Of a stretch of DNA of 64,000 bases, positions 1,000 to 39,765 are shown in pieces; the first letter of the stretch is position 1; each line of letters begins with the position of its first letter. The notes below the pieces were generated by a model. It searched no databases. It had not been told where the DNA came from and worked only from the letters and a program-made list of their open reading frames with translations. The stretch comes from Tubulanus polymorphus (taxonomy: Eukaryota > Animalia > Nemertea). Position numbers and translations under genes: made by a program. Where the stretch lies: the NCBI RefSeq assembly GCF_964204645.1, contig NC_134028.1, positions 14,887,653-14,951,652 of the forward strand, written 5' to 3'.

Positions 1000-1572
1000 T
1001 TAAATAAATTCATATTTAAATGGGTGTTGTAATCTAAATAGTAATTTTGATCTTTTAATATTTTTCAACTCATCCATATATTCATTATGTAAATCATGTG
1101 GAATAATATCATTTTCCTCAAGTGCATTTTTCATCGATTTTCTATCTTTATTGTAGAATAAAACTAGAAATCTAATGTTTTCTCTAAAGTCTTTAACAAT
1201 TGAATTATATTTTTGATTTAAAACCCAAGTTGTTATCCCAAAATGTCTGCCAGAGAAAGCTAAATAACATAACTCACTTTCTCTAACTTTTGAATCATGT
1301 AGATTAGCACAATCATCTATGATAAATAATGTATTTGATCCTTTATAAATATCAATTGCTATTTTTATACAATTATCTAAATTTTCTTTTACTGTTTTAG
1401 GATCTAATATAATAAATTTATTATTTCTAGTAATATTTCTATCATAAGTTTGATTAAATTCATATGTTGGACAAAATAATACTATATTATCAAAATAGTT
1501 TTTGTAAACAGTTTCTAATAAATTTAATATAAAATAAGTTTTTCCACAATTTGTTACACCAGAAATTAACAT
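1000..1572 (-). CDS. DNA-packaging ATPase (A32/FtsK-like)
   Basis: Walker A GVTNCGKT, Walker B LFIIDD, and GRHFGI..LNQ motif. Homology to element 2 extends upstream to ~1605, where the ATG appears to be mutated to ATA. Confidence 0.9.
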   Translation of the reverse strand: MLISGVTNCGKTYFILNLLETVYKNYFDNIVLFCPTYEFNQTYDRNITRNNKFIILDPKTVKENLDNCIKIAIDIYKGSNTLFIIDDCANLHDSKVRESELCYLAFSGRHFGITTWVLNQKYNSIVKDFRENIRFLVLFYNKDRKSMKNALEENDIIPHDLHNEYMDELKNIKRSKLLFRLQHPFKYEFI

Positions 1573-1608: not shown

Positions 1609-2736
1609 TTATATATTTTTAATTTTACTTGATAATATCCATTCATTAAATTTATCTGGCCATCCAACCCATTTTACTAAAGAATATTTTTTTCTTTTAA
1701 CAGTTTTTGTTTTTAGTACTTTTTCAATTTTATATTCTTGTTCTACATTTTCAGTAGTTAAACTTAATTCTTCTTCATAAAAATATCCATAAACTTCTTC
1801 ACCATCTAAATCTTCTAATTTATAGACATATGGTTTTGTTGTTATTACCTTTTTTATTTTATATATTTCTCTAGTAAAATTTCGATCGTATCCTTTGTCA
1901 AATATCTTTTTATACTTAGAAATTCTAACATTTTGACCAACTTTAAATTTAGGTTCACCAAAATCATCTACAAGAAATGCTCCATATAAATTATTCCAAA
2001 CAATTTCAGCATTTTCAGGTTTTCTAGCATCAATAGGTTTCATTCCAATAGAAGAATGATAAGAATTATTATATCCTTCTATCAATTTTGGTAAAACATC
2101 AATCCATTTAAAAGTATTATTTGCTGTAAAATATTTCCACATTCTTGTTCTTAATGTTCTATTAAATCGTTCAACAACTGCTGCTTTTTTATCCGATTTT
2201 GTTGAAAAATATTTAATATTATGAAAATCTAAAAGTCCATGAACTAATGAATTATCAAATTCTTTTCCATCATCAAATTGAATTTTTTCTGGTTTTAGTT
2301 TACCACCTGAAAGAAATTTTCTTAAAACATGTGATGTTTGTGCAGCATCTTTTCTATAAAGTGGGAAGCTCCATACTTAACGACTAAAAATATCAATTAT
2401 ATTCAATATCCACCAATAATCATTATTATCTTTTTTAAGATTTTTCATATCAATTAAATCTCCTTGCCACTGTTGATCTACATAACTTACCATAGTTTTA
2501 CGAGTTTTATATTTTCTAACAATTTTTTTATGTGTTGTATACGTTGGTTGTTCTAACATAAATTCATTTATATCTTTATATTTAACTAAATTTTGTGGGA
2601 TTATCTTATCTAATTTATCTTGTTTTACTTTACGCCATATATTTTTAGTAGAAGAATAAGCAACCGAACTCTCAGGGTTGTAATATAAATTTCTTAAATA
2701 TTGTTCTTTAGTATTAGGAGTTTTTTTACCACCCAT
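1609..2736 (-). pseudogene. Retroviral-type (rve) integrase with C-terminal chromodomain; one in-frame stop
   Basis: WQGDLID / QFDDGKEF / VERFNRT DDE motifs, chromodomain YKIEKVL..LVKWVGW..NEW. TAA at 2377-2379 replaces Tyr (FSR*VWS versus FSRYAWS in element 2). Confidence 0.9.
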
Positions 2737-2766: not shown

Positions 2767-4014
2767 CTAATATTGAATACTATCTAATTGTGAATTTATA
2801 ATATTTAATTGCGCGTCAGATATAATATAAATGTGCATTTTAAAATTTTTGATTCCTTTATTCTTTTTCATGAATAATTGTATTCCATCTTTAGTGTTCT
2901 GTAGTTTTTTCCCAGAACCATGTAATGAATTATCTTCAGTTGTTCTAAAATCTAACCATAATGCATATTTATTACCGGTATAATAATCAATTTGATTAAT
3001 ATTACAATTTTCAAATGATTTTACTTTTTCATTCATAAAATGTTTTTTAATTTCTACCCATTGATCAATCATTCTCATTCCTTGACAAAATATTTTATTC
3101 GCTATTCCTTCGATAGTTATTTCTACTTTTGTTATTTCAGGATTATAATAATTATCAACATTTATTGCGCCATTAGTATACGTTCCAATGGTAAAAAATA
3201 TTAATATACCTTTAATAGATCTTCTAGGAAAGTTAATATTCTCATTAATTATTTCATCATTTGCATTAATAGTTACAGTTTTAAATTTATCAATATAATC
3301 ATATAATAATGAAAATCCTTGATTGTATTGAGTTTGAATTGTGCTAGCAATATTTTCATTAGTTACTGTGTTATATTCTAAACATATATTCGATAATTTA
3401 TAACCCATATCTTTAACAACGCTAGATAATACAATTTCATTTACAGGAGCAAATGTTATCTCAAATATAATATCTTCTTGAATTGCGTATTTATATAAAG
3501 GTGCATCATTATTTATCAATTCAAAGTCTAATGGAATTTTATATTTACTTCCATAAATCTTTTTAATCAAATTATCTACGCTATTATTTACTACTGCGTT
3601 ATTGGCTTCAGATCTTAATTTATTATGGTTTTCCGATTGAATACCCTGAAATATCATATTATTTCTATTTTCTTTAGTTAACCATAAATCTTTATAATAC
3701 ATAAATAAATTATAATCATCTAATGAGAAAACTGTTTCTGGACCAATCTTTATTGTTAACTTTTTAATCAAATATCTTCCAACATTATCGACAACATAAT
3801 TATTATCATGACCAGTTACTTTTATATCGGCTGATAAATAAATACTATTTGGAACATAAAAAGTATTTTGTGTTAATCTAGGAATTCTAACATATAAAGT
3901 TTCATCGGGATTAATATTTGAAGGGTTATGAGTAATTATATGATGTGATCTTTCTGCTTTAATTGCATTAGATATTCTATGATTTTTCGAAGGACTTATA
4001 TAACTCCCACTCAT
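2767..4014 (-). CDS. Major capsid protein (double jelly-roll), intact
   Basis: 415 aa, beta-rich, Polinton MCP-like N-terminus (TINPxxxNP..LYVRIP), near-identical to 32900..34147. Confidence 0.8.
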   Translation of the reverse strand: MSGSYISPSKNHRISNAIKAERSHHIITHNPSNINPDETLYVRIPRLTQNTFYVPNSIYLSADIKVTGHDNNYVVDNVGRYLIKKLTIKIGPETVFSLDDYNLFMYYKDLWLTKENRNNMIFQGIQSENHNKLRSEANNAVVNNSVDNLIKKIYGSKYKIPLDFELINNDAPLYKYAIQEDIIFEITFAPVNEIVLSSVVKDMGYKLSNICLEYNTVTNENIASTIQTQYNQGFSLLYDYIDKFKTVTINANDEIINENINFPRRSIKGILIFFTIGTYTNGAINVDNYYNPEITKVEITIEGIANKIFCQGMRMIDQWVEIKKHFMNEKVKSFENCNINQIDYYTGNKYALWLDFRTTEDNSLHGSGKKLQNTKDGIQLFMKKNKGIKNFKMHIYIISDAQLNIINSQLDSIQY

Positions 4015-9238: not shown

Positions 9239-10551
9239 ATGGAAGTGAAGATAGCATGCGAAATTTGTGGTGAACTTCTAAGAAAAAGTAATATGGCTCG
9301 ACATATGAAAAAACATGATGAAAATTATAAACCCCCTAAAATAAACTGTCCAAATTGTAATAAAACATTCTCTAGAAATTATTTCAAAAAACATTTAGAG
9401 AAGTGTAAAAATAATAACTTAATAGTTAATGTTGATAGTTACGAAAGTAATAATAATTCTGTTGAAGTTGATCCTGAAATTATTTGGAAAAGACCTTTCT
9501 TATTCTATGATAAGGATAATATAAAAGATTATTTCTGTGAGCCTTGTCGAATAAAATATAACCCTGAAAATATAGAAGATTGGGAGAATCATCAATTTCG
9601 TAAAGTACATATAGATAAAATTTCTAATAAATTTGAAACTGAATTCAATGCAAGAAAAAATAATTTATTAGAAAAAATGAAATATGAGAAAACATTACCA
9701 GATAATGAAGAAACAGTTGAAAAGTTAGAAAAACAATATAATGAATTAACAAGAAAAACATATTATTGTAAATATTGTAAATTGATTATTACAACAAGTA
9801 ATTCAAATCTACATAATAGAACAATAAAAAAAAAGAAAACGTAAGAAAATACCAAGAGCTTAATGAAGATCTATTACCAGTAAATTATAAACAAAAATGC
9901 CCACAATGTATTTATGCGACCTTAAGGCAAGAAGGTACTGTGTTATTTTGTGTTGATTGTGGATGGCAAAAGAATTTATGGGGTGAAGAAAAAACTAGAA
10001 ATTTTCTCATAGATCCAAAATTAAATTATCTAGATGAAATTTTTGAAATATTTTCTATGGAAGATCATACACCAGAATATATGCAATGGCTTGAAAAAAT
10101 GAAAATAATAGAAAATAAAAATGGTGAAATAACTAAAAAAGATATTATAAAAACAATTATTCCACCAACATTTAACACAAAACAAAAGAAAATGTATTTA
10201 TATTTATTATTTAACGATTATTATGAAAAACCTAAATTAACAGAAGAAGATATGGAAAATATAAAAAAAATATTTAAACAAATATTAATGTATCATTTGG
10301 AAAATAGAATAACAGATTCAATAAATTATGAATTCTTTTTAAATAAGATTGTAAATTATTTAAACATCGATATAATAATTCCATTTGATGAATTAACAAA
10401 CAAAAAGAAACAAAGAGAGCGAGATGAAATGTGGAACAAGATAGAACTTTATTTAAATGAGAAAAATGGAATGGAAGAAGAACCTGAACAATTAAATGAA
10501 AATGAAGAAGCCAATAGTGATTTCGAGTTTGATGATATAGATCCATTTTAA
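9239..10551 (+). CDS. Multi-zinc-finger + VLTF3-like (poxvirus late transcription factor-like) protein, split by a frameshift in an A-run at ~9826-9834
   Basis: C2H2-like fingers in 9239..9844. The frame of ORF 9940 is open back to ~9832 (KENVRKYQ..CPQC..EGTVLFCVDCG). C-terminal SINYEFFLNKIVNYL..KKKQRERDEMWNKI resembles VLTF3. Confidence 0.6.
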
Positions 10552-13500
10552 TAACCATAAGGTAATGTTTTTATACCATCATCTGAAATATGCCTTTTAT
10601 CATCAAATGGATTTAAACTAGTTTTTTCAACTTCATTAATGTACATCTCATGATCTTCTGATCTTAAACAATTCATCTTGTGTTTCATTACAATTGATTT
10701 ATATAAACACTTTATATAATCTTGAAATTCTATATGTTTATCAACCACATGTTTTGTTATTCCTTTTAACTTTTTAGCTTCATGATCTTTTGTTCTGTAA
10801 CTATACATTTTACTTCTTATCCCAACAAATTCAATCATTTCATCACCTCCTAATTCATCTTTAAATTTACCAGGAATCTTTTTATTATCATTGCTAAATA
10901 GTTCATGATCTTTGGGATAATTGCTAAAATCAAAATAATGTTTTAATGTTTTTAAGTCTTTTGTTATATCATTTGTCTTGATTTTTAGTATGTAGGCGTC
11001 AGTATTTTTGGCTATTAATGGAAATCCACAGTTAAATGTACCATCTTCAGTTGATAAATCATAAACATAATCTGTTGGGTTATATATTTCAAATAAATCT
11101 TTAACTTCTTCTGTTAATTCTTTTTCTACATGTCTTAAATTAAAACAATTTGGTTTAGATTTAATTAATTCTATATTCATATTAAATCCTAATGAACTAC
11201 ATAATATATTTAATCCTGATATAGCAACCTTTCCTTTTTGAGCTAAAGATATTGTTTTGAAACTTTTTGAACCATCTGCTGCATAGAATCCAATGAAGAA
11301 CCATTTTCTTAAATTATTTTTTGCATTTAATACATAATCTGGAACTATCTTTTCTTTAGTTGAAGTATTACTTTTCACTATTGCATGAATATAGAATTCG
11401 TTATTATATTTTATAGCAAAATCTTTAGGATTATTCACATGTATTCTATAACATTGCGATGATTTCATAACATCTATGATTTTGAATGTTTTATGTGAAA
11501 AAACTTCTTCACAGAATTTCTTAATTCTTTCTAATAATTTTAAGTCTTGATTGCATAAATACCAACAATATTTAGTTCCACTAACATAATTATACACACC
11601 TGCTGAACCATCACCCATGAAAAATCCTTTGATAAAATATTCTTTTTCTTCTAATGTTTCGGGTTCTATATTATAAATATTATCAATTATTTCATCAAAT
11701 GACATATGATTCATTCTTGGGTAAAATCTGTTGTGTAATAATTCATCTCCAATTTTTATATCAGTTGGTTTTATTTCATTACCATTTTGTTTAATCAAAC
11801 TATGGTCTTCAGTAATATCAACAAACCCTAATTTAGTTCTAACTCTATAGATTTTCTTATTTGTTTTATGTCCAATAATATTCTTTAATTTTTTCCATCC
11901 ATTTCTCGTCCAAACATCCATTAATCCATTTATTTGTATTAATTCTTTTTCACCATATGAAATATAACATTCATTTTGTTTTGGAATTATTTCTGAAATT
12001 CTTCTTACCAATATTTTATTATTACATTTTAATAATATTGGGGTGTCAGCCGTTACAGAATCAAAATATAATATTTCAATATGCTTTTCCCCAAAAAGTG
12101 GTTGTAAAACATTATAATAAAAATCATACATTAGTAATTTTGATATTTCCAAAACAGTTGAACCTATAAATATAGGTTTATTAAATTTTAATGATGTTCT
12201 TTTTAATTTTACTGCTGTTAAATAATCTTCAAACCTTTTATTTCCTAAATGTCTAGGACTTGATTGTAAATGTCTTAATCTTTCAGAATTATTTACTAAT
12301 TCAATATCATTTCTATTTCTAATATTTTCACATGTTTTACCATAAAAACTATTATTCATTAATTTAAAGAAATCTTTTTCAAAATCTGTTTTTGATATGG
12401 TTCTCTGTTGAGTATTGAAATCTATATATTTTTCTAACCACTTCGATTGATTAAATTCAATATATCTATGTACTTTCTTTAATTTCATTCCTTGTTTTAG
12501 ATAAAATTTTAACATTCTATAATGAACAATATAATTGTATTTATTATTTTGAGTAAGTATTAATTTTTCTGTAAAAACATGATCTTTCGGTTTTATTTTC
12601 TTCTGGTATTCACTTAAATAACTATCATCTACAGTTAAATGTTCTGGGCAATAAGGTAAGTTTCTTGTTTTAAACTTTATATTTTCAGGATATTCTAAAT
12701 CAACTACAAAGAAATAACCAATTGGTGCTTCATCTTTTAAACTAATAATTGCGCTTTCCCAATCAGTTTTATCACCATTTTCAACTTCTGTTAATATAAA
12801 ATTTTTATATGGTTGAGGTTGCATCATTGCCCAACCATATAAATTATTGGCGTCAATATATAATAATTTATATTCATCATTTGCTTTAAAATACCTATCT
12901 CCCATAACACCACTAATTCCACCTCTAATTGATTTTTCAAATAATAAAACCATATCTGGTTCTTTTAATAAATCTAATTCTACATTTGTATATTTTAAAC
13001 CACATTGCCAGGTTAAACCAGGACTAGAGTAGCAATAACAAGGATCAACATTAAAATGATTCAAATTAACTTCTCTAAATTTTTCAAATATGTCAGCCAA
13101 TATCATAACATCTGATTTTAAATATAAATCAACTAATTCACCATGATTTTTCATATTAAAATGGTTCCAAATATTTAATGTTCTATCAAAAACTTCGTCT
13201 TTCACATACTCCTCTTTTAATTTATCATAAAATTGATCTTTTAATAATTCTGTTACATTAAAATCATCATGTGTTTTATAAAATGAATAAGGAATTGCGC
13301 CTTTATATCTCAATAATTTAAAATCTTGTTCATTTGGATAATAATATCGAGTTATAACAAAATCATTATCAACTAAACTTTTTGATAAATTATCTAATGA
13401 ACTTGCTAGAAATCTATAAGAATCTAAAAATCTAATGCAACCAAATTGAGATGAAATATAATTTTCAGATGTTTTAGCTAGTAGTTTAAAATCATATTTT

Positions 13501-15601
13501 CTTACATTTACACCATTCATAGTATTATATTCTTCTATTTCTTGATTAATTGCACCCAATTTTCCCGATTATTGTTTTATAAATAGATGGGTATCATAAC
13601 CCGATAAATTATGAAATAATATTGGTACGAAATTAACTTTCTTAGCTTGTAAATTGCAATCTTCATGAGCAGCTCCACGATATTTTGAATTTAAATGATC
13701 ATGATCTCTAACTCTTTTATCAAATGAATAAAAACGTTTTTCACAATAACAACAATGAGTTGCATAATTAAAATCAATTTCATCTTTTGTTATAACTATT
13801 CTTTTATTTTTGTTTAATAATTTTGTAAAATCACTTTCTAATTCAATCATTTTATCACAAAAATCATTAACTACATTTTCACCTCTAAAAGAAATATATT
13901 GACTTTCATATAATTCGGGATAATTTGATTTTATGTAAATTCCATAAGCAGCAGCTCTTTGATGAACTTTTTTAATTGTATTTATAATTGGTGGGTCTTG
14001 AATTATATCTTCATTTAATTCACTTCCTTTATCCATTGATTTTAATAATTGCTTTTTGTTATATATTTCTTTTCTATCTTGATCAGTTAATTCTTTATTC
14101 AACGATTCAAAATCCCCATAAATTACAAATGGAACAATATTTTTAAATTTATGATTAGTAAATTTCAATTTATAATCTTTTTCTGTTGGCATTATCAATT
14201 TACAAAAATCTTTATTATCACATAATTCTTTATGTTTTAGTAATGTATTCTCAGTCATAAATTTAGATAAACATTTTCTACATAGATAAATTTTACGATG
14301 ATGATCACTTTCTGTTGTTCTAAAGAATAAATCAATTTGTTTTAACCACATATAATGTTCATTTTCATCTTTTTTGTAATATAACAAATCTATAGCATTT
14401 TCATCATCATAATATTCTGTTAAATATAAAGCTTCCAATGTATAATCTTTAATATTTTCACCTTTTGTCTTTGGTAATTGCATTAATTCGAATACATTTA
14501 TTTTTAAATTATTAACTTTTTCTATTTTAGGAATCATTTTTATAGTTACTGGATATTGATCAATTTTATATAATGTTTCATATTTCCGATAATCTGTTAT
14601 TCTACAAACATTTTCCTGTGTTGGATGTAAGCAACTAATAATTGACCATAGAAAACATTTATTATCTTCATTTTGAATATTTATTACTGCTTTTGTTATA
14701 AATGGTAATTTGATATAACTTGATGCTTTCATATCTTTTTCTGTTATAAAGTTTGAATCATTTTTAAACATTTTATTACTTTTTGATGTTTTATTTCTTT
14801 TTGTATTATAAACATTTAAATCTAAATATATAATTTCATTCAATGTTAAGCCAGAACCCTCAAAATATCTTTCTTCAATATGACGTTTAAATTCATTTAA
14901 TATTTTTTCTAACTTCTCTTTTATTTGTGTTTTTGAAATTATTTCTTCAGAGAGTGTTTGAATATTATAATTCATTTTTCTTCTGACTTTATAAAACTTA
15001 CTTTCCCAGAGATACTAATTTTTGGATATTCAACATCTGTTATCAAATCTAGTATTTTTTCTATTATTTCATTAAATTTACTATAATCTTCTATTGTTGT
15101 ACCTTTAAAGAATCTAAATATAATAGCTGCAGGACCAATTTTACTATGTAATGTTTCTAAGATTTCAATTGTATCTTTTATTTCTAGTGAATCAATATAA
15201 TTTCTAACATTTTCCATGTAAGGTTTATTTGAAATGGATTTTGTTTTTGAAGTTGATTCTTTTACTTGTTGAGGTTTATTATCAAAATAATCTTTTCCTA
15301 AAACATTATTACTCAAATTTTGGTGATGTTTTTGTGATTCGAGATGTCTATTATAATTCCTTTTTACTATAAATTCATTACAAACTTCACATTTTATTTC
15401 ATCCACATTCATATTTTCTAATCGTTCTTTTCTTTCATTGGAATTTTCTGGAGTTTCAAAATCTATTACATTTTTTAAATGATTTGCAGTTTTTTCATGT
15501 CGTGTTTTATGAGATGTATCGATGTATTTTTTACAATATTGACAATAATATTGATTTTTATTGACATTATTGTTTTCTAGTTGTTGTTCATTCTCCCCCA
15601 T
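10548..15601 (-). pseudogene. Protein-primed family B DNA polymerase (pPolB) with intein; one frameshift (~14975) and one nonsense codon (13569)
   Basis: Exo I YGDFES, Exo II FHNLSGYD, motif A YIDANNLYG, motif B KLMNNSFYGK, motif C YFD..TD. Also N-terminal Zn fingers, an OTU-like DNKCFLW..EHY region and an EndoVII-like CxxC..DHDH..RGAAH..CN region. Confidence 0.95.
11004..12059 (-). mobile_element. Intein (352 aa) with LAGLIDADG homing endonuclease in PolB motif C
   Basis: Block A SVTADTP, block B TEDH, LAGLIDADG motifs FIKGFFMGDGS and FFIGFYAADGS, block F VYDLST, block G AKN|T. Removal restores YFD-TD as in the intein-less element 2. Confidence 0.95.
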
Positions 15602-16305
15602 TTATTAGGAAAAAAAATTACTTGTGGTGATGAGTGTTAGGAAAAAAATTACTTGTGGTGATGAGTGGTGTCTCGCCCTCTCGCCCTCTGATCTGAAACC
15701 CCACTTTTCTAATTACTCTAGTTGTATATCTGTACAATTCGTATCGTCGTGCGCTTGACTCTGTTCCAGCAATCTGATAATCCTAATCCAGGTGAAATAG
15801 TGGAAGTTCTAGCGATTTTAAACGATCCTGACACACACACATGGGTGGCTGCGTAGTTAATTGTCATCGTCCCAAACTGGATACCCCTCTATATAGTCAT
15901 CGTCGCAAAAATCAATTGTTTCATTTTAGGGTTCAATTTAGATAAAGGGCAAATTTCACTAACTGTTCATGAATTGCAACTCAATGAATGAATGCAGTTT
16001 AACAACACTAGCTTAATTAATTTATTTATTTTCATAAATAATGGTATATAATGCACTAGGGCTTAAGTGGTCATATGCCTGGTGATCGACAATCCTCAAT
16101 TATCACGGCCGACTCTCAAACTGGATTTAACCAGACTGGCGCCCAACCCGATGTTTTTTCAAGGGCGTCGCCAATACTACGTACGGTACGGTACTTGAGA
16201 TGCCGTTATCATTAACAATTTATCTGACGGTTCCACAGTTCTTGATTAACATTTAACTCAGAGGTAAAAGTAACTCAGAGTTAAATCCGGTTCCACAGTT
16301 GTGTG

Positions 16306-26174: not shown

Positions 26175-26807
26175 AGTAATAGGGGTAATGGGCTTTCATA
26201 CCAAAGGTCGAACGGTCGAGCTCATTAAAAAACAAAACATTAAAAGTAATTTAAAACTATAATATATTTTCATAACCGTGTGCATTTTATATTATAACTA
26301 AATATTTATTCTAAGATATCAATAATTTAAAAAGCATAGGTCAATTGGTCGCTCCACTTCGCTACCGCTCCGCTCCGCGACCAATTGATTTATTTACAAT
26401 ACACAAATTCATATAATCAAATATATTCAAATAATAATAATTATTCTATTATTCAACTGAAATACACACGGTTATGAAAATATATTATAGTTTTAAATTA
26501 CTTTTAATATATGTTTTTAATGAACTCGACCATTCAACCTTTGATATGAAAGCCCATTACCCCTATTACTCTTAAAATATTATTAAAGTGTGATTGAAAT
26601 AATGCATAGCTGTTTATACTAGAACATGATTCTATTTGAACCTATATATCATTGAACTCCTAAAATCAATTTTAAAAAAAAATTTGATATTAAAATGGGA
26701 GCAAATAAGTACTACTGTCCAACATGTAAAATCAATATAGATAAATCTCAAAAAGCAAGACACAATAAAAATAAAACACATTTAGAGAATAAATTGAAAC
26801 TAGAATA
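26175..26807 (+). repeat. Left TIR of Polinton 2; first 396 bp self-complementary
   Basis: Reverse complement of ~43620..44214 except for a variable internal stretch. Confidence 0.9.
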
Positions 26808-26922
26808 TTTACAGTTATATTCAGAACAGTTAACAAAGGCAAAGAAATTTATTGAATTATGGAATAATGATCCAAATAATGAACAATACGTTGAGGAATT
26901 TGATATCAAGGATCCGAAATGA
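26695..26922 (+). CDS. Chimeric 75-aa ORF (pPolB N-terminal Zn finger + HNH C-terminal tail)
   Basis: First 38 aa match 43472..43732; the remainder matches the end of 28660..28974. Confidence 0.5.
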   Translation: MGANKYYCPTCKINIDKSQKARHNKNKTHLENKLKLEYLQLYSEQLTKAKKFIELWNNDPNNEQYVEEFDIKDPK

Positions 26923-27779
26923 CTTATCTGTTAGTAAAGTGTGATTGAAATAATGCATAGCTGTTTATACTAGAACATGATTCTATTTGAACCTATATAC
27001 ATTCCATGTAAAGAGCTATGGAATAAATCTATAAATTCACAGCTGTTACAGCTGTTACTATGACGCCGAGACATTATGACTCATAATATTACAAACGTGC
27101 AGAGAAAATTCTAGAAAGGTGTGCTGGAACTCTGAATAGAGATGACATGTCATAATCAGAAACGTGTGGAATATTCTAGAAAAGGCGCGCCGGAACCAGA
27201 TGACGTGGCATGATCAACGGCGTGTTCATTCTAGAAATCGACCCGGAAATGAACAGACGCTGTAACATTGTGCTCAGGATATTCTATCTATCGAAACGAA
27301 ATTAGGAGTTTATAGTTTACAATTCTAAATTTAAATGTAAGTACTGTTTGTTGTAGTTATTAGGGCTATTAAATATGAAACCTTTAGATATATTTAAGTG
27401 TATTTAGTATATCTTTTAGATGGCTAGAGTTGCCGCTAATATCTTATAGATTAATAAAACGCCATACGCATCAAGAAGTGATAGAGAAACTCAAGATACT
27501 CTTTCTGACTGAGGAATCAACAGCAATGGATATCAAACCAATAGAATCGCCAAAAGATCGACGAAGAAACTATTTAAGAATTTCAAAAACACTAAGACTC
27601 CAATGATTAAGTTTAACATTTGTTGATGTAGTTAAATATTTACCGGCAATTGAAAAAATGCTTGTAATTATAAATTGTATTCATAGAAATCAAATGATGT
27701 ATTGGAAGAAACGATTGAACATATTTGTATAATGTATTGTGTAAATCTGATTGGCGAATTTTTATGTTCGGTCGTTTCT

Positions 27780-28165
27780 ATTATGATTAGCGCATGCGCA
27801 TTGATCCAAACCGGGCCTGAATGCCCGGTCTTGCCTAGTGCACATGTGTTTTGATATTTCATGTCGGTTGTTTCTATTTACATAATGAATATATAATTAT
27901 GATTAGCGCATGCGCATTGATCCAAATCGGGCCTGAATGCCCGGTCTTGCCTAGTGCACATGTGTTTTGATATCTTATGTGTTCAGTTGTTTCTATTATG
28001 ATTAACACATGTGCATTAAGCAAAACCCGGCATCAATGGCCGCATGTGACGCATGTAACGCATGTGTTGTTTCTATTTTACAGAATTTATAGAATGAATA
28101 TATAATTATGATTAACGCATGCGCATTAAGCAAAAACGCTCCTGTATGCCCGCATGTGACGCGGA
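27780..28165. repeat. Four diverged ~100-115 bp tandem units with GCGCATGCGC-type palindromes
   Basis: tatgattagcgcatgcgcatt-like starts at ~27782, 27898, 27997 and 28107. Confidence 0.8.
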
Positions 28166-28309
28166 TATTGTAACTGGTATTATTTAGATAACAAGGAATC
28201 GAAACCGACTTATCAAAAGCAGCGAGGAATGAAAAAGGATGACGTTGGTCGAAGAAATGGAAGAGGATTCTAAAATATTAACCAATTTAGTAAAAAATAC
28301 ATATAATAA

Positions 28310-28974
28310 ATGGAACCAGAACAACCACAAACTATCAATATTACAAATAACACTGGTGTTATAAATATATATTACAAGAAGTGTTCTAAGTGTGAATTAG
28401 ATAAATTAGCTTTAACAGAATTTAGTAAGCGTAAGATTAGCAAAGATGGTTTTCAATATTGCTGTAAAACTTGCACTAAACTATATACCAAACAATATCG
28501 AGAAGGTAATATAGAACATTATAATTATTATATGGCAGAATATATGAGAGAAAGATATCAAACAGATCTTAATTTTAGATTGAAACAATGCTTAAGATCT
28601 AGATTAACACAATTATTCAACAAAGAAACACATTCAGAAACACTATCTAATTTGTTGGGTTGTATGAATTTCTCAAATCATGGATTATATTTCAATTCGA
28701 TGATAAAATGAATATAGATAATTATGGGGATTATTACCATATTGATCACGTGTTACCAATATCTAAATTTAACATGAATGATGAATACAATAAAAAACTT
28801 ATTTGGGGTTGGAAAAATTTAAGGCCTTTAGAAAAGAAAGAAAATCAAATCAAATCTAATAAACTAGATTTACAGTTATATTTAGAACAGTTAACAAAGG
28901 CAAAGAAATTTATTGATCAATGGAACAATGATCCAAATAATGAACAATACGTTGAGTCTTTAATGAGTGGTTAA
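28310..28974 (+). pseudogene. HNH endonuclease of the type common in large DNA viruses, frameshift at ~28662
   Basis: N-terminal KKCSKC..CCKTC, then RLRSRL-like segment, NYGDYYHIDHVLP..WKNLRPL..EN..KSNK. Confidence 0.8.
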
Positions 28975-29219
28975 AGAATAATAGAATTTAAATAAAATAT
29001 AATAAAAATTACATATCTTCAACTAGCTAGTATTAGTTATTGTTTTTTAATACTTTCTTTTCAAAAAAGAATACTTTATATCACAAATAAAAAATACTAT
29101 AAAAACAATAACTAATACTAAAATTCTTTACCTTTAACTAACTAGTATTAACCCAAAGAGATACTAGTATCATTTTATAGTACTTATAATATTTTTTTTG
29201 CTTTTTTTCTCTAATGTAA

Positions 29220-29831
29220 ATGTCAAAGAAATCTAATAAGAATAGTATTGATATTGAAAAGACATTAGATGATTTGGGTATAAGTGATAATAAAGATACA
29301 GTTGTAACTTATTGTGCTCAAGTTAATTGTAATATAGATTATGAATACTATTCATATTGTAAGCATCATCTAGAACTATTGATTGCCGGTGGAAAAACTA
29401 AGGATTTCTTGGGAAAAATAATAACTTTTCAAGAATTAGATGCTATGAAACCAGATAAAGTAATGAATTATTTTAAGATTTATGAAGAAGCAAGATTAGC
29501 CCGAATAAATGATTCTATTTCAGATGGTATTGTCAAATGTTATTCTAAGTTATGTAACCAGTTAATACCAATTGATGATGAAAATAAATTATATAGTGAT
29601 TTGAAAAATGACTACTTAGTTATGACTGAATTACAAAAATTGGTCGGATATGCTTCATTTCAATTAGGATCTGTTATGACATTAATTTCTACTGGCGTCA
29701 TAACATTTTCGAATATCAAACCTATGGAATATAAATCAGGTAAGAACGAAACAGATGTACTACAACCAAACGTCGAAACAGAAAATGAATCAGAACAAAA
29801 ATTAACTAAAATAAATGAGTGGTGGAGTTAA
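29220..29831 (+). CDS. Conserved Polinton hypothetical protein
   Basis: Homolog of 110..715. Confidence 0.8.
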   Translation: MSKKSNKNSIDIEKTLDDLGISDNKDTVVTYCAQVNCNIDYEYYSYCKHHLELLIAGGKTKDFLGKIITFQELDAMKPDKVMNYFKIYEEARLARINDSISDGIVKCYSKLCNQLIPIDDENKLYSDLKNDYLVMTELQKLVGYASFQLGSVMTLISTGVITFSNIKPMEYKSGKNETDVLQPNVETENESEQKLTKINEWWS

Positions 29832-30183
29832 GAAAAAGGCTAGATCCGAGAAACAAATTAAATGGGCAAGAGAATTAGGTAAACGATCTTCAGAATTAAA
29901 AAAAGCTAAGAAAAAGAAATTAACTGATATAAATGAATCACAGACTTTATCTGATATTGATTCAAATAATAATCCATCTGATTCTTCTAATGCTGGAAGA
30001 AATAATAACTTATATATTACAATTGGGTTAATCACAATTATTATATTTTCCGGTGTAATATATAAATCAAAATTCAAATCTGATGATAAAGATGATTCCA
30101 ATGACAATAAACCTATCATACCAGAAAATAAGTCAAATCATAAAGTCATTGAAACTAAATCTAAATTATTATTAATGGATTAA
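29815..30183 (+). CDS. Basic N-terminus, single-TM protein
   Basis: TM segment LYITIGLITIIIFSGVIY; homolog at 1..177. Confidence 0.7.
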   Translation: MSGGVKKKARSEKQIKWARELGKRSSELKKAKKKKLTDINESQTLSDIDSNNNPSDSSNAGRNNNLYITIGLITIIIFSGVIYKSKFKSDDKDDSNDNKPIIPENKSNHKVIETKSKLLLMD

Positions 30184-30189
30184 AATAAG

Positions 30190-31275
30190 ATGAAAAAAGA
30201 ACAATATTTAAGAGAGTTATATTATAACCCAGAAAGTGAAGTATCATATTCTAGTATTTCAGAATTATGGAATAAAATTAAATCTAATAATGGTGGTACA
30301 AAATATAGTGAATTGAAATCATGGTTACAAAATCAACCAGCATATCAAATCCACAAGAAAATGGATAAAACTTATTTAACAAGAAAAGTTATGGTTTCAT
30401 ATATCGATCAACAATGGCAAGCAGATTTCATTGACATGAAGAACTTAGAGGAATACAACAAAGGATATTTCTGGATATTAAATGTTATAGACATATTCAG
30501 TAGATACGCATGGTCAATTCCAATCAAAAATAAAACTGGTATAGAAGTGACAAATGCTTTTAAATCTATATTTAAAGAAGCTATTCCAGATAAGATACAA
30601 TTTGATGAAGGTAAGGAATTTTATAACAAACATTTCAAAAAACTATTATCTGATAACGATGTAGATTATTTTTCAACACATTCAGATAAAAAAGCATCTA
30701 TTGTAGAAAGATTTAATAAAACATTGAAAACTAGAATGTGGAAATATTTTACTGCTAATGAAACATGTAAATATATCGATGTGTTAGATGATTTGGTGAA
30801 AGGGTTTAATAATTCTTAACATAGTTCTATAAATATGAAACCTATACAAGCTAAAAAAGAAGATAATTCAGAAATAGTTTGGAATAATTTATATGGAGCA
30901 TTTGTTACACATGATTTCGGAGAACCTAAATTTAAAATAGGACAACACGTCAGAATATCTAAATATAGAAAAACATTTTATAAAGGTTATACTCCAAATT
31001 TTACTGAAGAAATATTCAAGATTAAAAAGATAATATTAACTAAACCATTTGTTTATAAATTAGAAGATCTAAAAGATGCAGAAATATTAGGTTATTTCTA
31101 TGAACAAGAATTATCACTTGTACCAAATCCAGATGAAATAGAATACAAAATAGAAAAAGTATTGAAAACAAAAACTATTAAGGGAAAAAAGTATTCTTTG
31201 GTGAAATATAAAGGGTATGATGATAAATTTAATGAATGGATTTTATCTAGTAAAATTAAAAGAATAAATGAATAA
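30190..31275 (+). pseudogene. rve integrase + chromodomain; in-frame TAA at 30817
   Basis: WQADFID, QFDEGKEF, VERFNKT; NNS*HSSI versus NNSYHSSI in element 1. Confidence 0.9.
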
Positions 31276-31903
31276 AGATTTATTTATATTTGAACCGCAT
31301 AATATGTTAATAACTGGAGTTACCAATTGTGGTAAAACACATTTCATATTAGATTTGTTAGAAACTATTTATAAGAATCATTTTGATAATATAATATTAT
31401 TCTGTCCTACTTATAAAATGAATAAAACATATAATAGAGATATAGTTAAGATGAAAAAGTTTATTATATTAAATCCTAAAACAGTAAAAGAAAATTTAGA
31501 TAATTGAATTAAAATAGCAATTGATACTTATAAAGGATCAAATACATTATTCATTGTAGATGATTGCGCAAATTTACATGATTCAAAAGTTAGAGAAAGT
31601 GAGTTATGTTATCTAGCTTTCTCTGGGAGACATTTTGGGATAACAACATGGGTTTTAAATCAAAAATATAATTCAATTGTTAAAGACTTTAGGGAGAATA
31701 TAAGATTTCTAGTTTTATTCTACAATAAAGATAGAAAATCTATACAACAATCATTGGAAGAAAATCAAATAATACCTACTGAATTACATGATGAATATAT
31801 GAATAAATTAAAGAATAATAAAGGTTCAAAATTATTACTGAGATAACAATTTCCCTATGAATATAAAATTTATAAAATAACTATTTATATATCTATGTAT
31901 TAG
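31268..31903 (+). pseudogene. Packaging ATPase; in-frame TGA at 31505
   Basis: GVTNCGKT; the reading frame continues after the stop with FIVDD and GRHFG. Confidence 0.9.
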
Positions 31904-31965
31904 ATACCCTAATACCTGATAGCCTATTAGATACCCTAATACCTGATACCCTATTAGATACCTTA
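31897..31965. repeat. Three ~27-bp tandem repeats between convergent gene blocks
   Basis: tattagataccctaatacctgata repeated, third copy partial. Confidence 0.75.
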
Positions 31966-32024
31966 AATACTTAAAATCCCCTTTTTTATTTACTATTATT
32001 TTATACAATTTTCAACCTTTATTA

Positions 32025-32483
32025 TTATTTGAGTGTTCGATAATCAATTTCTGAATCACTTTCACTATCAGACCCTAACAATTTATTCAAATTCTCTACC
32101 GTATCTTCTTCTAATTCTTTATTATTTTTACACTTATTTTTCACCTTTTTTACCGAATCATCAATAGTTGTTTCATTGTTATGCTTATTCATCCAATCAA
32201 ATTTATCTTTATTATCAATGTGCTTTCCTGTATTTTCATTATTATCTTTATTAGTTTTTGCTCCTAATATTTCATTTACAGCGTTTGATCCTAATATTTC
32301 ATTAGTATCAATTAAATCTAATTCATCTTTATTAGGTGTTGCTAATAAAAAATCTTCATATAATTCTTTACCATTTACTTTTTTATTTGAAACAAATTTT
32401 GTAACATATCTAAATGGGTGTTCTATAAATTCTCTTAAACCAACACGTTCTATAACATTAGTAATATGTGAATTTGTATTCAT
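32025..32483 (-). CDS. Hypothetical protein, seen only in element 2 within this window
   Basis: 152-aa ORF with acidic C-terminus; no recognised motif. Confidence 0.5.
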   Translation of the reverse strand: MNTNSHITNVIERVGLREFIEHPFRYVTKFVSNKKVNGKELYEDFLLATPNKDELDLIDTNEILGSNAVNEILGAKTNKDNNENTGKHIDNKDKFDWMNKHNNETTIDDSVKKVKNKCKNNKELEEDTVENLNKLLGSDSESDSEIDYRTLK

Positions 32484-32498
32484 ATGTTTATTCCAATT

Positions 32499-32867
32499 TC
32501 ATGGAGCGTTTGAAAATTCACCTTTACAATAATCACAATAATTTCTATTTTTACTAACATTAAAAATTAATGCATTATTATATGTAGTAGGTATTACATT
32601 ATTTGATGTAGAGGGTATTACATTATTAGATGTAGTAGGTATTACATTATTAGATGTAGTAGGTATTACATGATTATCAATTACATTACTTAAATTATCA
32701 ACAACACCACTTTTATTATTATCGATTTCTATTAGTTTAGTTTTATAAATTTTGAAAATAGGATCAAATATCAAAGCTATATTACAAGGTATTACATAAT
32801 ATAAACCATCATTATTTTCATGTGTATCGATGTATGGAATATGTTTATATACTTTACCTCCTTCCAT
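32499..32867 (-). CDS. Hypothetical protein with NNVIPTTS repeats, seen only in element 2; possibly one gene with 32025..32483
   Basis: Starts at a TAAATG motif; 24-bp coding repeats; CDYC near the end. Confidence 0.5.
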   Translation of the reverse strand: MEGGKVYKHIPYIDTHENNDGLYYVIPCNIALIFDPIFKIYKTKLIEIDNNKSGVVDNLSNVIDNHVIPTTSNNVIPTTSNNVIPSTSNNVIPTTYNNALIFNVSKNRNYCDYCKGEFSNAP

Positions 32868-32899
32868 TTATTATATATATTTTTATTAAAGTTAAAATT

Positions 32900-34147
32900 T
32901 TAATACATAACACTATCTAATTGTGAACTTACAATATTTAATTGCGCGTCAGATATAATAAAAATGTGCATTTTGAAATTTAGGCTTCCTTTTTTCTTTG
33001 TCATGAATAATTGTATTCCATCTTTAGTGTTCTGTAGTTTTTTTCCAGAACCATGTAATGAATTATCCTCTGTTGTTCTAAAATCTAACCATAATGCATA
33101 TTTATTACCGGTATAATAATCAATTTGATTAATATTACAATTTTCAGATGATTTCACTTTTTCATTCATAAAATGTTTTCTTATTTCTGGCCATTGATCA
33201 ATCATTCTCATTCCTTGACAAAATATTTTATTTGCTATTCCTTCGATAGTTATTTCTACTTTTGTTATTTCAGGATTATAATAATTATCAACATTTATTT
33301 CGCCATTAGTATATGTTGCAATAGTAAAAAATATTAATATACCTTTAATAGATCTTCTTGGGAAGTTAATATTCTCATTAATAATTTCATCATTTGCATT
33401 AATAGTTACAGTTTTAAATTTATCAATATAATCATATAATAATGAAAATCCTTGATTGTATTGAGTTTGAATTATACTTGAAATATTTTCATCAGTTACT
33501 GTATCATATTCTAAACATATATTCGATAATTTATAACTCATATCTTTATTAACGCTAGATATTACAATTTCATTTACAGGAGCAAATGTTATCTCGAATA
33601 TAACGTCTTCTTGAATTGCGTATTTATATAAAGGTGCATTATTATTTATCAATTCAAAGTCTAATGGAATTTTATATTTGCTTCCATAAATCTTTTTTAT
33701 CAAATTATCTGCGGTACGAGTTACTATTGCGTCATTAGCTCCTGATCTTAATTTATTTTGGTTTTCTGATTGGATTCCTTGAAATATCATATTATTTCTA
33801 TTTTCTTTAGTTAACCATAAATCTTTATAATGCATAAATAAATTATAATCATCTAATGAGAAAACTGTTTCTGGACCAATCTTTATAGTTAATTTTTTAA
33901 TCAAATATCTTCCAACATTATCAACAACATAATTATTATTATTACCGATTACTTTTATATCGGCTGATAAATAAATACTATTTGGAACATAAAAAGTATT
34001 TTGTGTTAATCTAGGAATTCTAACATATAAAGTTTCATCGGGATTAATATTAGAAGGGTTATGAGTAATTATATGATGAGATCTTTCTGCTTTAATAGCA
34101 TTAGATATTCTATGATTCTTAGAAGGATTGATATAACTCCCACTCAT
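32900..34147 (-). CDS. Major capsid protein, intact
   Basis: 415 aa, near-identical to 2767..4014. Confidence 0.8.
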   Translation of the reverse strand: MSGSYINPSKNHRISNAIKAERSHHIITHNPSNINPDETLYVRIPRLTQNTFYVPNSIYLSADIKVIGNNNNYVVDNVGRYLIKKLTIKIGPETVFSLDDYNLFMHYKDLWLTKENRNNMIFQGIQSENQNKLRSGANDAIVTRTADNLIKKIYGSKYKIPLDFELINNNAPLYKYAIQEDVIFEITFAPVNEIVISSVNKDMSYKLSNICLEYDTVTDENISSIIQTQYNQGFSLLYDYIDKFKTVTINANDEIINENINFPRRSIKGILIFFTIATYTNGEINVDNYYNPEITKVEITIEGIANKIFCQGMRMIDQWPEIRKHFMNEKVKSSENCNINQIDYYTGNKYALWLDFRTTEDNSLHGSGKKLQNTKDGIQLFMTKKKGSLNFKMHIFIISDAQLNIVSSQLDSVMY

Positions 34148-34167
34148 TTATTTAACAAAAAAATTAA

Positions 34168-35632
34168 TTATTTATTTTTGATTATGTTTACTAACCCAAA
34201 AATAATTGCACTTACAACTGTAATTAAAAATAAAATAATATGTTCAGCAGCAAAGTTAAGAATATTCCCAGCAGATTTCAATATAAAACCAACAATTGAT
34301 GCAATAATTCCTGGCAATGCTGCAGCAGATTTTTTAGATAGTTCCCATAAATATTTTGCTAATTTCTTTAAACCATCCTTAACTTTATCTTGTATTGAAT
34401 TATTATCTGGGGGTTTATCCGGTTTATTGGGAGTAGGAGTAGATTTCAAAGAATTTGATATTGCTAAATCAATTGTTGTAAATAACATAGTTACAGCTGT
34501 TAGAATTGAAAGAATTGTTTTTCCTTCAAACTTAAATAATAATTTTATTCTATCTTTCAATGATATGTCAGAATTTGGTTTTAGTATTATCTCTTTAACA
34601 ACAACTTTTAATCTATTAATACAATAATCATATGATTTTAATAATAATTTTATTTTTTCTTTCTGAAATTCTATGTTATATTCTAAATCATCAATTTCTT
34701 TTTCTAAATATGCATTTCTTTTTTTAAATTCAATTTCTTCAATAACTTTAAATTCTCTATCTAATTTTAATTGTTCTAATTCTTTTCTGGTGTCAAATAA
34801 TTTATTTTCTAAAGGTTTAATTTTATTATATCTAATATGTTTTTCGCGCGTTATTTTATCAGTTTCATTTCGTATACTTATTATTTCTCTAATTGTTTTT
34901 TTTAGAAAATACATTTAAATCTTCTAATTGTTGATCTGTTGCATCAAGTAATCCCTTCGGTAAAAGTTTTTCAGTTTGAACTTCAGTGTTTGATTTAGGT
35001 TTACTAGTTTTGGAAGTTATATTCTGTTCAGAAGTTGTTTCTGGTTCTAAATTATTTTTGATTGTTTCAAATAAGTCATCAATTCTTTGACTAAATACTC
35101 TTATATTTTCATCTCTTTCTTCTCGTGTAACATCAGTTATTTCATTACTAATACTTATTCTCTTAATTCTATCTGGACCTAATTTTCTCAAAGTTGATTC
35201 CGCTAATATTTTATTTAGTTTTGTTCTTTGATCAGTGATATCAATATGATAATCACCATCCAAATGATGATAATATTTACCTTTAAAAAGTTTTAATTTT
35301 TTTACTAAAAATCTGGCGACTTTATCATTTATATTATACCCAGATCTTTCAAATGCAGGTTTGAATTTATGAATATATTCATTATCTTCAATATATTCTC
35401 TTTCTAAACCTGGGTCTAAATTTTCAGTAGGTATTCTCTTTCTTGTTCTTTTATCATTTTCTTCTGTTGATGGGGCTTTAGAACCACTATCTGCTAAATT
35501 AGAATTATATGCTGATTCATTACCATCATTAAAACTTGTTTCATCAAAATTGGGTTGTGGTTCATCATCAATATATCCTTCATTATTATTTCCCATGCCT
35601 TCCAATGGAATATCTTCTCCACCTTCTGCCAT
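34168..35632 (-). pseudogene. Coiled-coil/TM protein, frameshift in homopolymer at ~34900
   Basis: The two ORFs together align with 4060..5511. Confidence 0.8.
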
Positions 35633-35648
35633 TTACATAATACAAAAA

Positions 35649-37030
35649 TTAAAATTTAAAATATAATATTCCTCCGATTACAATTCCTATACAAGTTATA
35701 GCTAATTTAGTATTTTCATGGGATTTATTATCATCATTTAGTTTAATTATATCATGTTGAATAATATCAGTTTTAATATTTTCTGATGTATTGTAATCTT
35801 TAATTTTAGAATCATTATTTAATTTAATATTCTTAGTTTTAGTTTCTGTCGATTGAATGTGTTTTTTATTTTTTTCACCTTCCATTAATTTTGGTGCAGT
35901 GATAATCTTTTTATTTATATCATTTAATCCAAATGAATTATTTATTGTTGCAGTTTTAATTTGATTATTATAACCAATTATGTTTCCCATCTTTAATACT
36001 AAATCATTAGAAATGATAAATAGATTAGGGCCTATACAATAATTTAATCTAATATGTGATTTATCTAAATAATTTTGATATCTTACAATGTTTTCTGGAA
36101 TCGATCTATTTTTATCATTATGAATTGAATCTTCAAATAATACTTTGAATTGTTTCTGTGTATCAAATGATGTATTTAAATTTCCAATTATCGGTGATCT
36201 TGTTTCAACTTGCGGACCTAAAATACATATCAAATAAGTTCTAATAGATTGATTTATTCTTTGTATACCTGATTTTGTAAAACCTTCATTATTTTCTAAA
36301 ATGAAATAAACCCAACCATTATTGTTTTCTTGTTTTAAATTATCATAAAATGTCGGTAATTTATTATAATTTAGTGTTTCTAATTCCAAAGTTTCTATTT
36401 TACCATAACCTAATTTATTATTATAGATATTATAAAAACTATTAGATGGTATGGGAAGTGCACAATATTCTGCAATCTTTTTAGGGCAAGGAAGTGATCT
36501 TATTGTTCCAATTTTTGTTCTAAAATCAGAATTATTTATATCTATATTAAATTCATTACAAATTTTATAAAACTTTGATAAATTAATATTATTATCTAAT
36601 TCTTTAAAATACCTAGATCCTGGTAAAGCGCACTCTAATTCATTTAATATTATTCTGATTTGAAAGTATGTATGAAATCTAAATAAACTTTGAATTAATT
36701 TATATTTAGAATTATTCAAATTATCATTCCAACTTATTCCACATCCTGTTGTTGCACAATAAACAGCAAAATTTAATTGGTTCTGCCAATACTTCATATT
36801 AGATTTTAATAACCATTGTTTTTCATCTTTCAATTTTTTAAAATTAATTAAATATACATGAAATATATTTTCCATCTTTGCATTAAAATTATTAGTTTCA
36901 GTAACATAAATTTAGTTAATGAATCTAAAACTTCATTTCTATATGTAATATCTTTATTAAAATCTATTGCAGGAATATTATATTTAATTGATTTATTATA
37001 TTGGAAAGCTTTTGGAAAACTATCTGCCAT
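35649..37030 (-). pseudogene. Conserved ~460-aa protein; 7-nt deletion near 36912 separates the N-terminus
   Basis: MADSFPK.. (37030) joins MENIF.. when the extra 7 nt present in element 1 are restored. Confidence 0.8.
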
Positions 37031-37046
37031 TTATATAATTAAAAAA

Positions 37047-37481
37047 TTAATAATTAACTAATTCTTTTAATAATTTATCTTGTTCTTCAACTGTTATATG
37101 GCCATTTAAACTTATTATATAATCTAGTGTATTCTTTAATTTATTAATTTCTTTTATATTAGTTTTAATTTTTTCTTTATTACTTTTTATATTTAATTTT
37201 GAACTTATACCAGTTAAAACACTTGAACTTAATCCTAATACGCCAATTGATATAGCTAAAGGTGTTAATGGACTGAATATTGCTAAAATGTTATTACAGA
37301 ACTAATTGTAACCGAACCACTTATAATCAAATAATATATAATTTTACTTTTTAAATATTTTTTCTTTTTTTATCTTTAAGTCACTTTCAAATTCTAATAT
37401 TTGTTTTTCTAAATATGTTTTTAATTTAGTTTTATTTATATCATGAGGAATAATATCAATATTATCAACTTTATCATCCAT
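37047..37481 (-). pseudogene. 2-TM small protein, 1-nt deletion at ~37286
   Basis: Nucleotide match to 6930..7364. Confidence 0.8.
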
Positions 37482-37506
37482 TTATTTAACAAAAAATAAT
37501 AAATAA

Positions 37507-37929
37507 TTAATTAGTAAACTTATAAGCAACAAATATATCAATAACTGTTCCCCCTAAAATCCATATTATTTCATATTTCTGTTGTTCTTTACTTGGGGTA
37601 TAATAATCTGATAATTTAGGTTTGTATAGATGTAATTTTTCTTTATTGGTTACTGCGTTATATAAACTCATTGCATCATCAACTGATTGAAAATCTCTAT
37701 GTGAAATCTTCTGATCATATAATTCTTTATTGATGTAATCCATATAGTTTTGCCTCTTTTCTCTATATTCTTCTGCTGCTTTATTATATTTCTCTAATGC
37801 TAAGTTATGTCTTTTTTGTTCTGTTAATGAACCATTTTTATCAATATGCTTAAATAAATATCCACCACCAGTAAATGCTAAAGCGTTAACAAATGCCGAT
37901 CCTATAATAGTTATAATTGCAGAAGCCAT
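37507..37929 (-). CDS. Conserved small membrane-associated protein
   Basis: Homolog of 7385..7807. Confidence 0.8.
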   Translation of the reverse strand: MASAIITIIGSAFVNALAFTGGGYLFKHIDKNGSLTEQKRHNLALEKYNKAAEEYREKRQNYMDYINKELYDQKISHRDFQSVDDAMSLYNAVTNKEKLHLYKPKLSDYYTPSKEQQKYEIIWILGGTVIDIFVAYKFTN

Positions 37930-37952
37930 TTATTTGGCAAAAAATTATGCAT

Positions 37953-38516: not shown

Positions 38517-38533
38517 TTATATAGTGAAAAAAA

Positions 38534-39292: not shown

Positions 39293-39309
39293 TTATTTTA
39301 CATATTTTC

Positions 39310-39664: not shown

Positions 39665-39765
39665 TTTAATAACATATTTTTATTAAAATTTGATTAACAC
39701 GTTAGAATTCTTTTCATTATCTCGTTCTCTTTTGTTTCTTCTCTTTTAAATTTTAAGTATTCATC

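Follow-up and report, generated by a model that had tools for sequence, protein, structure and literature searches.

Inteins at the pol-c site of family B DNA polymerases (PolBs) are known from Mimivirus and from Archaea, where they interrupt the catalytic motif as YGD|TDS (PMC549080; here and below, what we say of a cited paper refers to the portions of its text available to us). Other viral polymerase inteins are listed for giant-virus families and unclassified viruses in a paper that describes metazoan genomes as devoid of inteins (PMC5784728); the initial annotation of the present locus, too, took self-splicing inteins to be practically unknown in animal nuclear genomes. Nuclear scaffolds of Klebsormidium, Tetrabaena and a labyrinthulomycete have also been reported to contain viral-like polymerases with inteins (PMC10710043), and the pPolB2 polymerases of Polintons from nematodes, oomycetes and molluscs carry HNH and VSR nuclease insertions (PMC10748475), which were taken as possible intein invasions (PMC11071308). 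Here we describe an intein in the protein-primed PolB (pPolB) of a Polinton, hereafter Polinton 1, in a stretch of 64,000 nucleotides (the window) from contig NC_134028.1 of assembly GCF_964204645.1 (positions 14,887,653 to 14,951,652 of the forward strand; positions below are those of the window). The reading that we hold to be probable as a whole is that a Ser-starting intein of giant-virus ancestry lies in motif C of this polymerase, is predicted to splice itself out, and likely homes among copies of the element in a host that is probably an invertebrate.

The insert measures exactly 1056 nucleotides, a multiple of three that keeps the frame, and translates on the minus strand (11004-12059) into 352 stop-free residues, corresponding to residues 501-852 of the open reading frame (ORF) 10548..13559. 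At the local base composition, 352 open codons have a chance expectation of about 3e-17. The insert separates the first Asp of motif C (LYFD^TDAY) from the Thr that follows it, with Ser1 immediately after LYFD and Lys-Asn immediately before TDAY. Its boundaries are fixed because a second element in the window, Polinton 2, has an intein-free allele reading LYFD|TDSY, with the empty site between 40224 and 40223; the blastn match between the DNA of the two elements ends at 12056 and picks up at 11005. Translation and empty allele thus agree on the in-frame, stop-free insertion in motif C that had been annotated initially, and the translation contains each of the landmarks named then: Ser1, TxxH, two LAGLIDADG motifs, VYDL, the terminal Lys-Asn and Thr+1. 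A spliceosomal intron was ruled out, since the insert ends in TC..AT, not GT..AG, and its frame is open and conserved. Recent capture by Polinton 1 was likewise ruled out, as the intein has the composition of its exteins (GC content at third codon positions, GC3, 0.14 vs 0.11-0.17) and is also present in relatives. That the insert is a real intein we regard as almost certain.

Judged by its sequence and predicted structure, the insert is a full-length Ser-starting intein with a Hint fold and an inserted LAGLIDADG domain. Its terminal residues Ser1 and Asn352, with Thr+1 directly following, are those of a class 1 intein, and T83, H86 and D334 are invariant or near-invariant across 32 aligned rows. 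The profiles TIGR01445 (intein_Nterm, 27.3 bits for a cut-off of 24.5) and LAGLIDADG_3 (30.6 bits for a cut-off of 22.5) both match. A model built from the 32-row alignment reached a pLDDT of 90.6 and a pTM of 0.91, and its best matches among PDB folds are the TliVMA intein (E 5e-17), PI-PkoII, PhoVMA, PI-PfuI, PI-SceI and I-DmoI; the best named viral fold matches are PolBs of a phycodnavirus, Pandoravirus, Marseillevirus and Megavirus. The full-length LAGLIDADG intein annotated initially is therefore borne out by profiles and structure prediction alike. PI-PkoII was also the sole match in a PDB sequence search with the intein, and the same search with the extein returned chance matches only. 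The presence of two splicing halves around the LAGLIDADG domain ruled out a Hedgehog-type Hint domain or a nuclease-only insertion.

On these sequence and model features, splicing appears very probable. The chemistry of class 1 inteins is well established and, if followed here, Ser1 would undergo an N-O shift aided by T83 and H86, a branch would form on Thr+1, and Asn352 would then cyclise with the help of Asp334. Splicing would rebuild the D-T-D active site and give a working polymerase; in the unspliced precursor, the catalytic motif would stay interrupted by 352 residues.

Could the locus be an assembly chimera, in which a giant-virus intein or a free virus was joined to host DNA? No listed contig runs across the whole stretch, and no read shown bridges this particular junction at 15717. 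However, the insertion is precise and in frame, ten other pPolB clusters have inteins at the same site, and Polinton 2 is flanked by a clean 6-bp target duplication. Furthermore, raw reads from an independent whole-genome sequencing sample with the same species label cover the intein, the exteins and the flank, and 663 of them have loose ends past 15717 (agreement 0.36). Because the reads past 15717 enter many different sequences, Polinton 1 is integrated at many places, as expected from the integrated Polinton proposed at the outset. A chimera is, in our view, hardly credible.

In the raw reads (X5), depth was about 6x that of the flank over the intein and about 11x over the extein; several copies of the element carry the intein. 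The lower depth of the intein is what a mixture of filled and empty copies would give, but diverged families also map to the extein. Summed contig depth of the intein relative to the flank (window 9000-19000) amounted to about 200x in X1 and about 18x in X2; this measure is not a copy number, and the value in X1 may reflect extrachromosomal copies or the summing of contigs itself.

The polymerase gene extends from about 15601 to 10548 on the minus strand. ORF 10548..13559, presented initially as the polymerase, does encode a pPolB with its intein, and alignment with the full-length relatives P0282 and P0283 across all pieces reduces it to the 3' part of the gene. In this copy, the gene is interrupted by a frameshift near 14972-14975 and by an in-frame stop at 13569-13571, two lesions lacking from most reads, which stem from other copies. 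Since both its polymerase and its integrase genes are broken, this Polinton copy is a decaying passenger, and activity belongs to the family. Six well-supported intein sites (from 6 of 40 rows, with 1499 further rows outside the count) depart from most reads in this copy, three of them silent and three residue-changing, which is too few to judge selection.

How widespread is this intein among pPolBs? Searching with the intein brought up 274 proteins; the 120 listed comprise seven pPolBs that carry it at this same site, six topoisomerases II, one polymerase delta from Chloropicon primus and, for the rest, PF00136 proteins. The five best matches are all pPolBs, with 46-63% identity, and the seven full pPolB inteins range from 35 to 63% identity to that of the window. 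A search with the N-extein added three further intein-bearing pPolB clusters (P0298, P0383 and P0390). Ten other pPolB clusters, defined at 90%, thus have an intein at the motif C site: six are whole and four (P0082, P0298, P0383 and P0390) end within the intein, so that decay or truncation is common. Two large intein-bearing pPolB families, of 136 and 121 members, each mix filled and empty members, and the contigs of the members listed reach 1 Mb and 55 kb, respectively. With the intein as query, viral and metagenome contigs yielded 37 and 80 loci, with a pPolB extein in none of the 117, and a profile search of cluster representatives gave 148 new matches, none of them a pPolB. This profile included flanks of RNA-primed PolBs, which makes our count of pPolB inteins a minimum. 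In a phage collection, the search returned two weak matches.

The same intein family extends to other proteins. Six topoisomerases II (P0009, P0077, P0094, P0107, P0112 and P0121) have it at a D^TDG site, and their inteins form one clade (support 99-100); here the family has moved into a non-homologous gene that offers a similar site. The polymerase delta of Chloropicon primus (P0098) has a motif C intein of this family, and P0399, P0400 and P0405 are single giant-virus-type PolB proteins with two such inteins each. Polinton-type pPolB genes also turned up in four bacterial metagenome-assembled genome records (loci L121-L124), most likely through misbinning of eukaryotic DNA.

Separate intein and extein trees, the approach envisaged initially, place the intein near those of giant-virus PolBs and show it to be patchy on the polymerase tree. 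The motif C position that the initial annotation had likened to that of Mimivirus and archaeal PolB inteins is indeed the pol-c site (YGD|TDS there, YFD|TDA here). Six of the pPolB inteins make up a single clade (support 100/99) in a tree of 32 rows, and the P0021 intein, from another Polinton class, stands apart among PF00136 inteins. In a quick tree of 46 rows, the sister of the pPolB clade comprises the GVMAG loci L001, L002 and L010 together with L044, P0011 and P0019 (SH-aLRT 97). Four of these loci (L001, L002, L010 and L044) end in GFPLIVKN, like the pPolB clade, and L001 and L010 encode RNA-primed PolBs; trees built without the GFPLIVKN giant-virus loci give other sisters, with weaker support. 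As the intein trees are unrooted, the direction of transfer is read from nesting. On this basis the intein very likely originated in giant viruses, and the simplest reading of the sequences is an old transfer from giant viruses to Polintons, probably made twice: one old entry would have come from the giant-virus lineage with the GFPLIVKN ending, and a second, probable on the trees, would have reached the other Polinton class (P0021).

The match in GC3 between intein and exteins and the 46-63% identity to other pPolB inteins indicate that the transfer is old and common to the Polinton clade. The suggested move from giant viruses to a pPolB is thus upheld insofar as giant-virus PolB inteins are the closest outgroup, and not as an event in this element. 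Another donor might be envisaged, either a cellular polymerase delta or other carrier, or Polintons themselves handing the intein to the GFPLIVKN giant viruses, since the trees are unrooted and the same intein family is found in the polymerase delta of Chloropicon primus and in topoisomerase II. However, the Chloropicon and topoisomerase II inteins are distant from both pPolB groups, and both groups nest within the far wider diversity of PF00136 PolB inteins; we find a different donor quite improbable.

The distribution of the intein was followed on a tree of 136 N-exteins, from which the last 15 residues had been left out. Intein state must change 13 times to account for the 17 filled rows among the 136, with starred branches enforcing at least nine of these changes, and some rows whose N-exteins are identical are filled in one case and empty in another. 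Filled and empty members of the P0004 family differ at 8-9 of 20 residues around the site, vs 0.7-5% elsewhere, in all six pairs compared, and the empty copies of this family also differ from one another there. For P0021 and P0663, 3 of 20 residues differ at the site vs 0 of 1236 elsewhere (19 of 1144 in a second count for the P0021 family); the intein-free P0663 is the departing allele, as four of five related loci have the usual LLFTDTDSL motif. Homoplasy is elevated between positions -10 and +15 relative to the site, at 8-18 steps per column vs 4-9 elsewhere, some of the upstream control columns having also served to build the tree. Motif C in 101 empty P0004-type relatives reads DCDS (35), DTDS (29), DTDA (16), DTDG (14) or otherwise (7), with the motif A Asp and the motif B Lys invariant; among the 15 empty relatives nearest the window, 14 have DTDS.

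Differences that pile up at the site in two of the three families with both alleles are as predicted for homing with target escape, and the sequence comparisons make it likely that homing is active in the family. From the patchy presence and the divergence local to the site, the endonuclease would cut the empty motif C of other copies and repair would copy the intein across, and the empty copies that survive would tend to bear altered sites. Might the intein instead have entered once, long ago, and now be a passenger with no active endonuclease, its patchiness produced by repeated precise loss and ordinary recombination? The change counts on the tree cannot separate gain from loss, four pPolB clusters end within the intein, and no local excess is seen in the P0007 family, one of the three with both alleles (P0140/P0143, 0 of 20), or in the lineage of the window (1-3 of 20 vs 17-28% elsewhere). 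However, the LAGLIDADG motifs, including the two aspartates and glycines of the endonuclease, are conserved in all seven full pPolB inteins aligned, at only 35-63% identity, two unrelated families have their differences precisely at the site, and homoplasy rises around it. We therefore judge a passenger unlikely.

The host group is deduced from transposons only, as neither Pfam on 210 flank ORFs nor Rfam or ARAGORN revealed a host gene, an Rfam family or a tRNA in the window. The flanks consist entirely of transposons: Harbinger transposases with Myb/SANT genes, a MULE and a long interspersed element (LINE). The MULE comprises ALS2CR8/CaRF-type, ZSWIM RNaseH-like, SWIM, Ulp1-like and PHD parts. 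Domains of the ALS2CR8 kind occur chiefly in animals; a literature search for ALS2CR8 with transposase found no paper. Among the 120 rows listed for the LINE, the single named relative comes from the octocoral Paramuricea clavata (35% identity), and look-alikes of the Ulp1-like ORF are most frequent in arthropods and nematodes, a weak sign from a tool unsuited to taxonomy. These sequences point with high probability to an animal host, probably an invertebrate. The same intein and element in a protist, an alga or a fungus-like eukaryote would agree with a window devoid of host genes and with the intein-bearing viral PolBs on algal and labyrinthulomycete nuclear scaffolds (PMC10710043), and our finding would then only extend the known nuclear viral-polymerase inteins of algae and protists to protein-primed polymerases. 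The composition of the MULE and, weakly, the coral, arthropod and nematode resemblances speak against such a host, to which we give a small chance.

Besides the truncated clusters, the absence of local excess in the P0007 family and the window lineage, and the lack of a host gene, several points weigh against our overall reading. The Pfam Intein_splicing profile matches with an E-value of 1e-6 and yet, at 29 bits, stays under its cut-off of 35.8. Among the 15 of 143 read joints shown, none skips exactly the intein. Holding all seven pPolB inteins together was rejected only narrowly (approximately unbiased test, p 0.042, a borderline value), and the sister group of the pPolB clade varies between trees, being P0018 twice, P0010 once and then the GFPLIVKN group. 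Motif C variants partly track subfamilies (DTDG arises from four changes only), and filled and empty alleles are compared at the protein level only. Finally, the intein has Lys351 in place of the penultimate His, and the block F His is absent too. Both His residues are also lacking in P0006, P0007, P0021 and many giant-virus relatives, among which KN endings are common, so their absence is a trait of the group, not decay; a penultimate His is usual in class 1 inteins and is not required.

If the host is an animal, the locus provides a complete intein in metazoan nuclear DNA, present in many copies and residing in an endogenous virus, not in a host gene. It also adds protein-primed PolB as a new class of intein host protein, with a homing site that crosses between two very distant polymerase families. 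Homing requires donor and target DNA within one cell, which points to Polintons and giant viruses having shared cells. A bolder proposal would have at least two captures from giant viruses and a homing intein actively spreading in animal Polintons and driving motif C into cleavage-resistant alleles, a natural drive with resistance and a record of cells shared with giant viruses; we give it an even chance. The families with both alleles allow direct tests of homing and of target-site escape.

The features of the two Polintons are collected in Table 1. The other end of Polinton 1 lies beyond the window. Its capsid candidate has no Pfam or PHROG match and no relatives in viral contigs, and a single-sequence model of it was unusable (pLDDT 32). 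No adenain-type maturation protease was matched by Pfam among the 38 ORFs scanned, Polinton 1 being cut by the window edge. Polinton 2, which interrupts an exon of a host MULE transposase, is collinear with Polinton 1 over most genes, and its polymerase protein is 69-76% identical to that of Polinton 1. The collinear block runs from capsid to polymerase, and the integrase-ATPase block is inverted in Polinton 2 relative to Polinton 1. Each terminal repeat of Polinton 2 (26175-26570 and 43811-44214) is an imperfect palindrome of about 400 bp. The C2H2 zinc-finger and VLTF3-like genes of Polinton 1 (9239-10551, plus strand) are without counterpart in Polinton 2; VLTF3 is a gene family common to giant viruses too. 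Conversely, Polinton 2 has a split HNH-type endonuclease ORF (28310-28974, plus strand; HNH_4, E 0.008), of which none was seen in the part of Polinton 1 within the window.

Table 1. Features of Polinton 1, its intein and Polinton 2 in the window
Feature	Position	Strand	Remarks
A32-like packaging ATPase, Polinton 1	1000..1572	-	PF04665, E 1e-11
RVE integrase with chromodomain, Polinton 1	1609..2736	-	In-frame stop at codon 120 (2377-2379); homologue in Polinton 2 has PF00665
Likely double jelly-roll major capsid protein, Polinton 1	2767..4014	-	Atlas feature matches of 0.97-0.98 to capsid clusters, low recognition score
VLTF3-like gene, Polinton 1	9940..10551	+	PF04947, E 4e-6; tail to tail with pPolB
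C-extein of pPolB	10548..11003	-	Starts TDAY; 75-78% identical to intein-free copy
Intein, 352 aa, Ser1 to Asn352	11004..12059	-	At PolB motif C, pol-c allele site
C-terminal Hint part	11004..11108	-	Block F VYDLST (VYD334L); block G FPLIAKN (K351-N352)
Two-motif LAGLIDADG homing endonuclease, about residues 121-310	11130..11699	-	PF14528; fold matches to I-DmoI, PI-SceI and PI-PfuI
LAGLIDADG motif 2, FFIGFYAAD262GS	11268-11300	-	
LAGLIDADG motif 1, FIKGFFMGD150GS	11604-11636	-	
N-terminal Hint half, about residues 1-110	11730..12059	-	TIGR01445 on residues 2-88; model strands; borders approximate
Block A SVTADTP (N-terminal Hint half)		-	
Block B T83-E-D-H86	11802-11813	-	
N-extein of pPolB: C-part of exonuclease, palm motifs A and B	12060..13559	-	PF03175, E 7e-16; ends LYFD
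5' part of the same pPolB gene	13569..15601	-	Alignment with P0282 and P0283, both full-length, spans every piece
Right end of Polinton 1	15700..15717	-	Starts AGTAAT on the minus strand
Polinton 2, complete	26175..44214		Terminal inverted repeats; 6-bp target duplication CGCGAT (26169-26174, 44215-44220)
pPolB of Polinton 2, intein-free	39766..43774	-	Empty site 40224/40223; frameshifted

How does this locus compare with described systems? Our literature search, whose coverage leaves out most subscription journals, InBase and Repbase, turned up no published Hint-type intein within a protein-primed PolB. In the portions available, PMC12220804, PMC3671162, PMC5718144, PMC8502044 and PMC11131425 present no comparable case, and neither PMC8502044 nor a survey of coral polintoviruses mentions an intein. 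As elements, these Polintons resemble the Alpha-type adintoviruses/Polintons (PMC8502044) in their PF03175 pPolB, their RVE integrase with chromodomain, their A32 ATPase and their likely double jelly-roll capsid protein, as well as in terminal inverted repeats that start with AGT and a 6-bp target duplication. With the HNH and VSR insertions (PMC10748475) the locus shares a homing-type nuclease lodged within a Polinton polymerase, animals included. The available text on those insertions mentions no intein, Hint or LAGLIDADG domain, whereas here a complete Hint and LAGLIDADG combination splits the catalytic motif.

As in the cases on nuclear scaffolds (PMC10710043), the intein entered a eukaryotic nuclear genome within the polymerase of an endogenous virus. 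The hosts of those cases, unlike the probable host here, are algae and a protist, and neither the main text of that paper nor two of its five supplementary files mention Polinton, Maverick, adintovirus, animal or pPolB. The closest relationship is with the pol-c inteins of Mimivirus and Archaea (PMC549080), which have the same site, Ser1, terminal Asn, Thr+1, two LAGLIDADG motifs and a length of about 350 residues; in sequence and predicted fold, our intein displays every feature of the pol-c group examined save the optional penultimate His. It differs from them in its carrier, a protein-primed PolB (PF03175) instead of an RNA-primed one (PF00136), and in its vehicle, a Polinton that integrates into the nuclear genome of a eukaryote.

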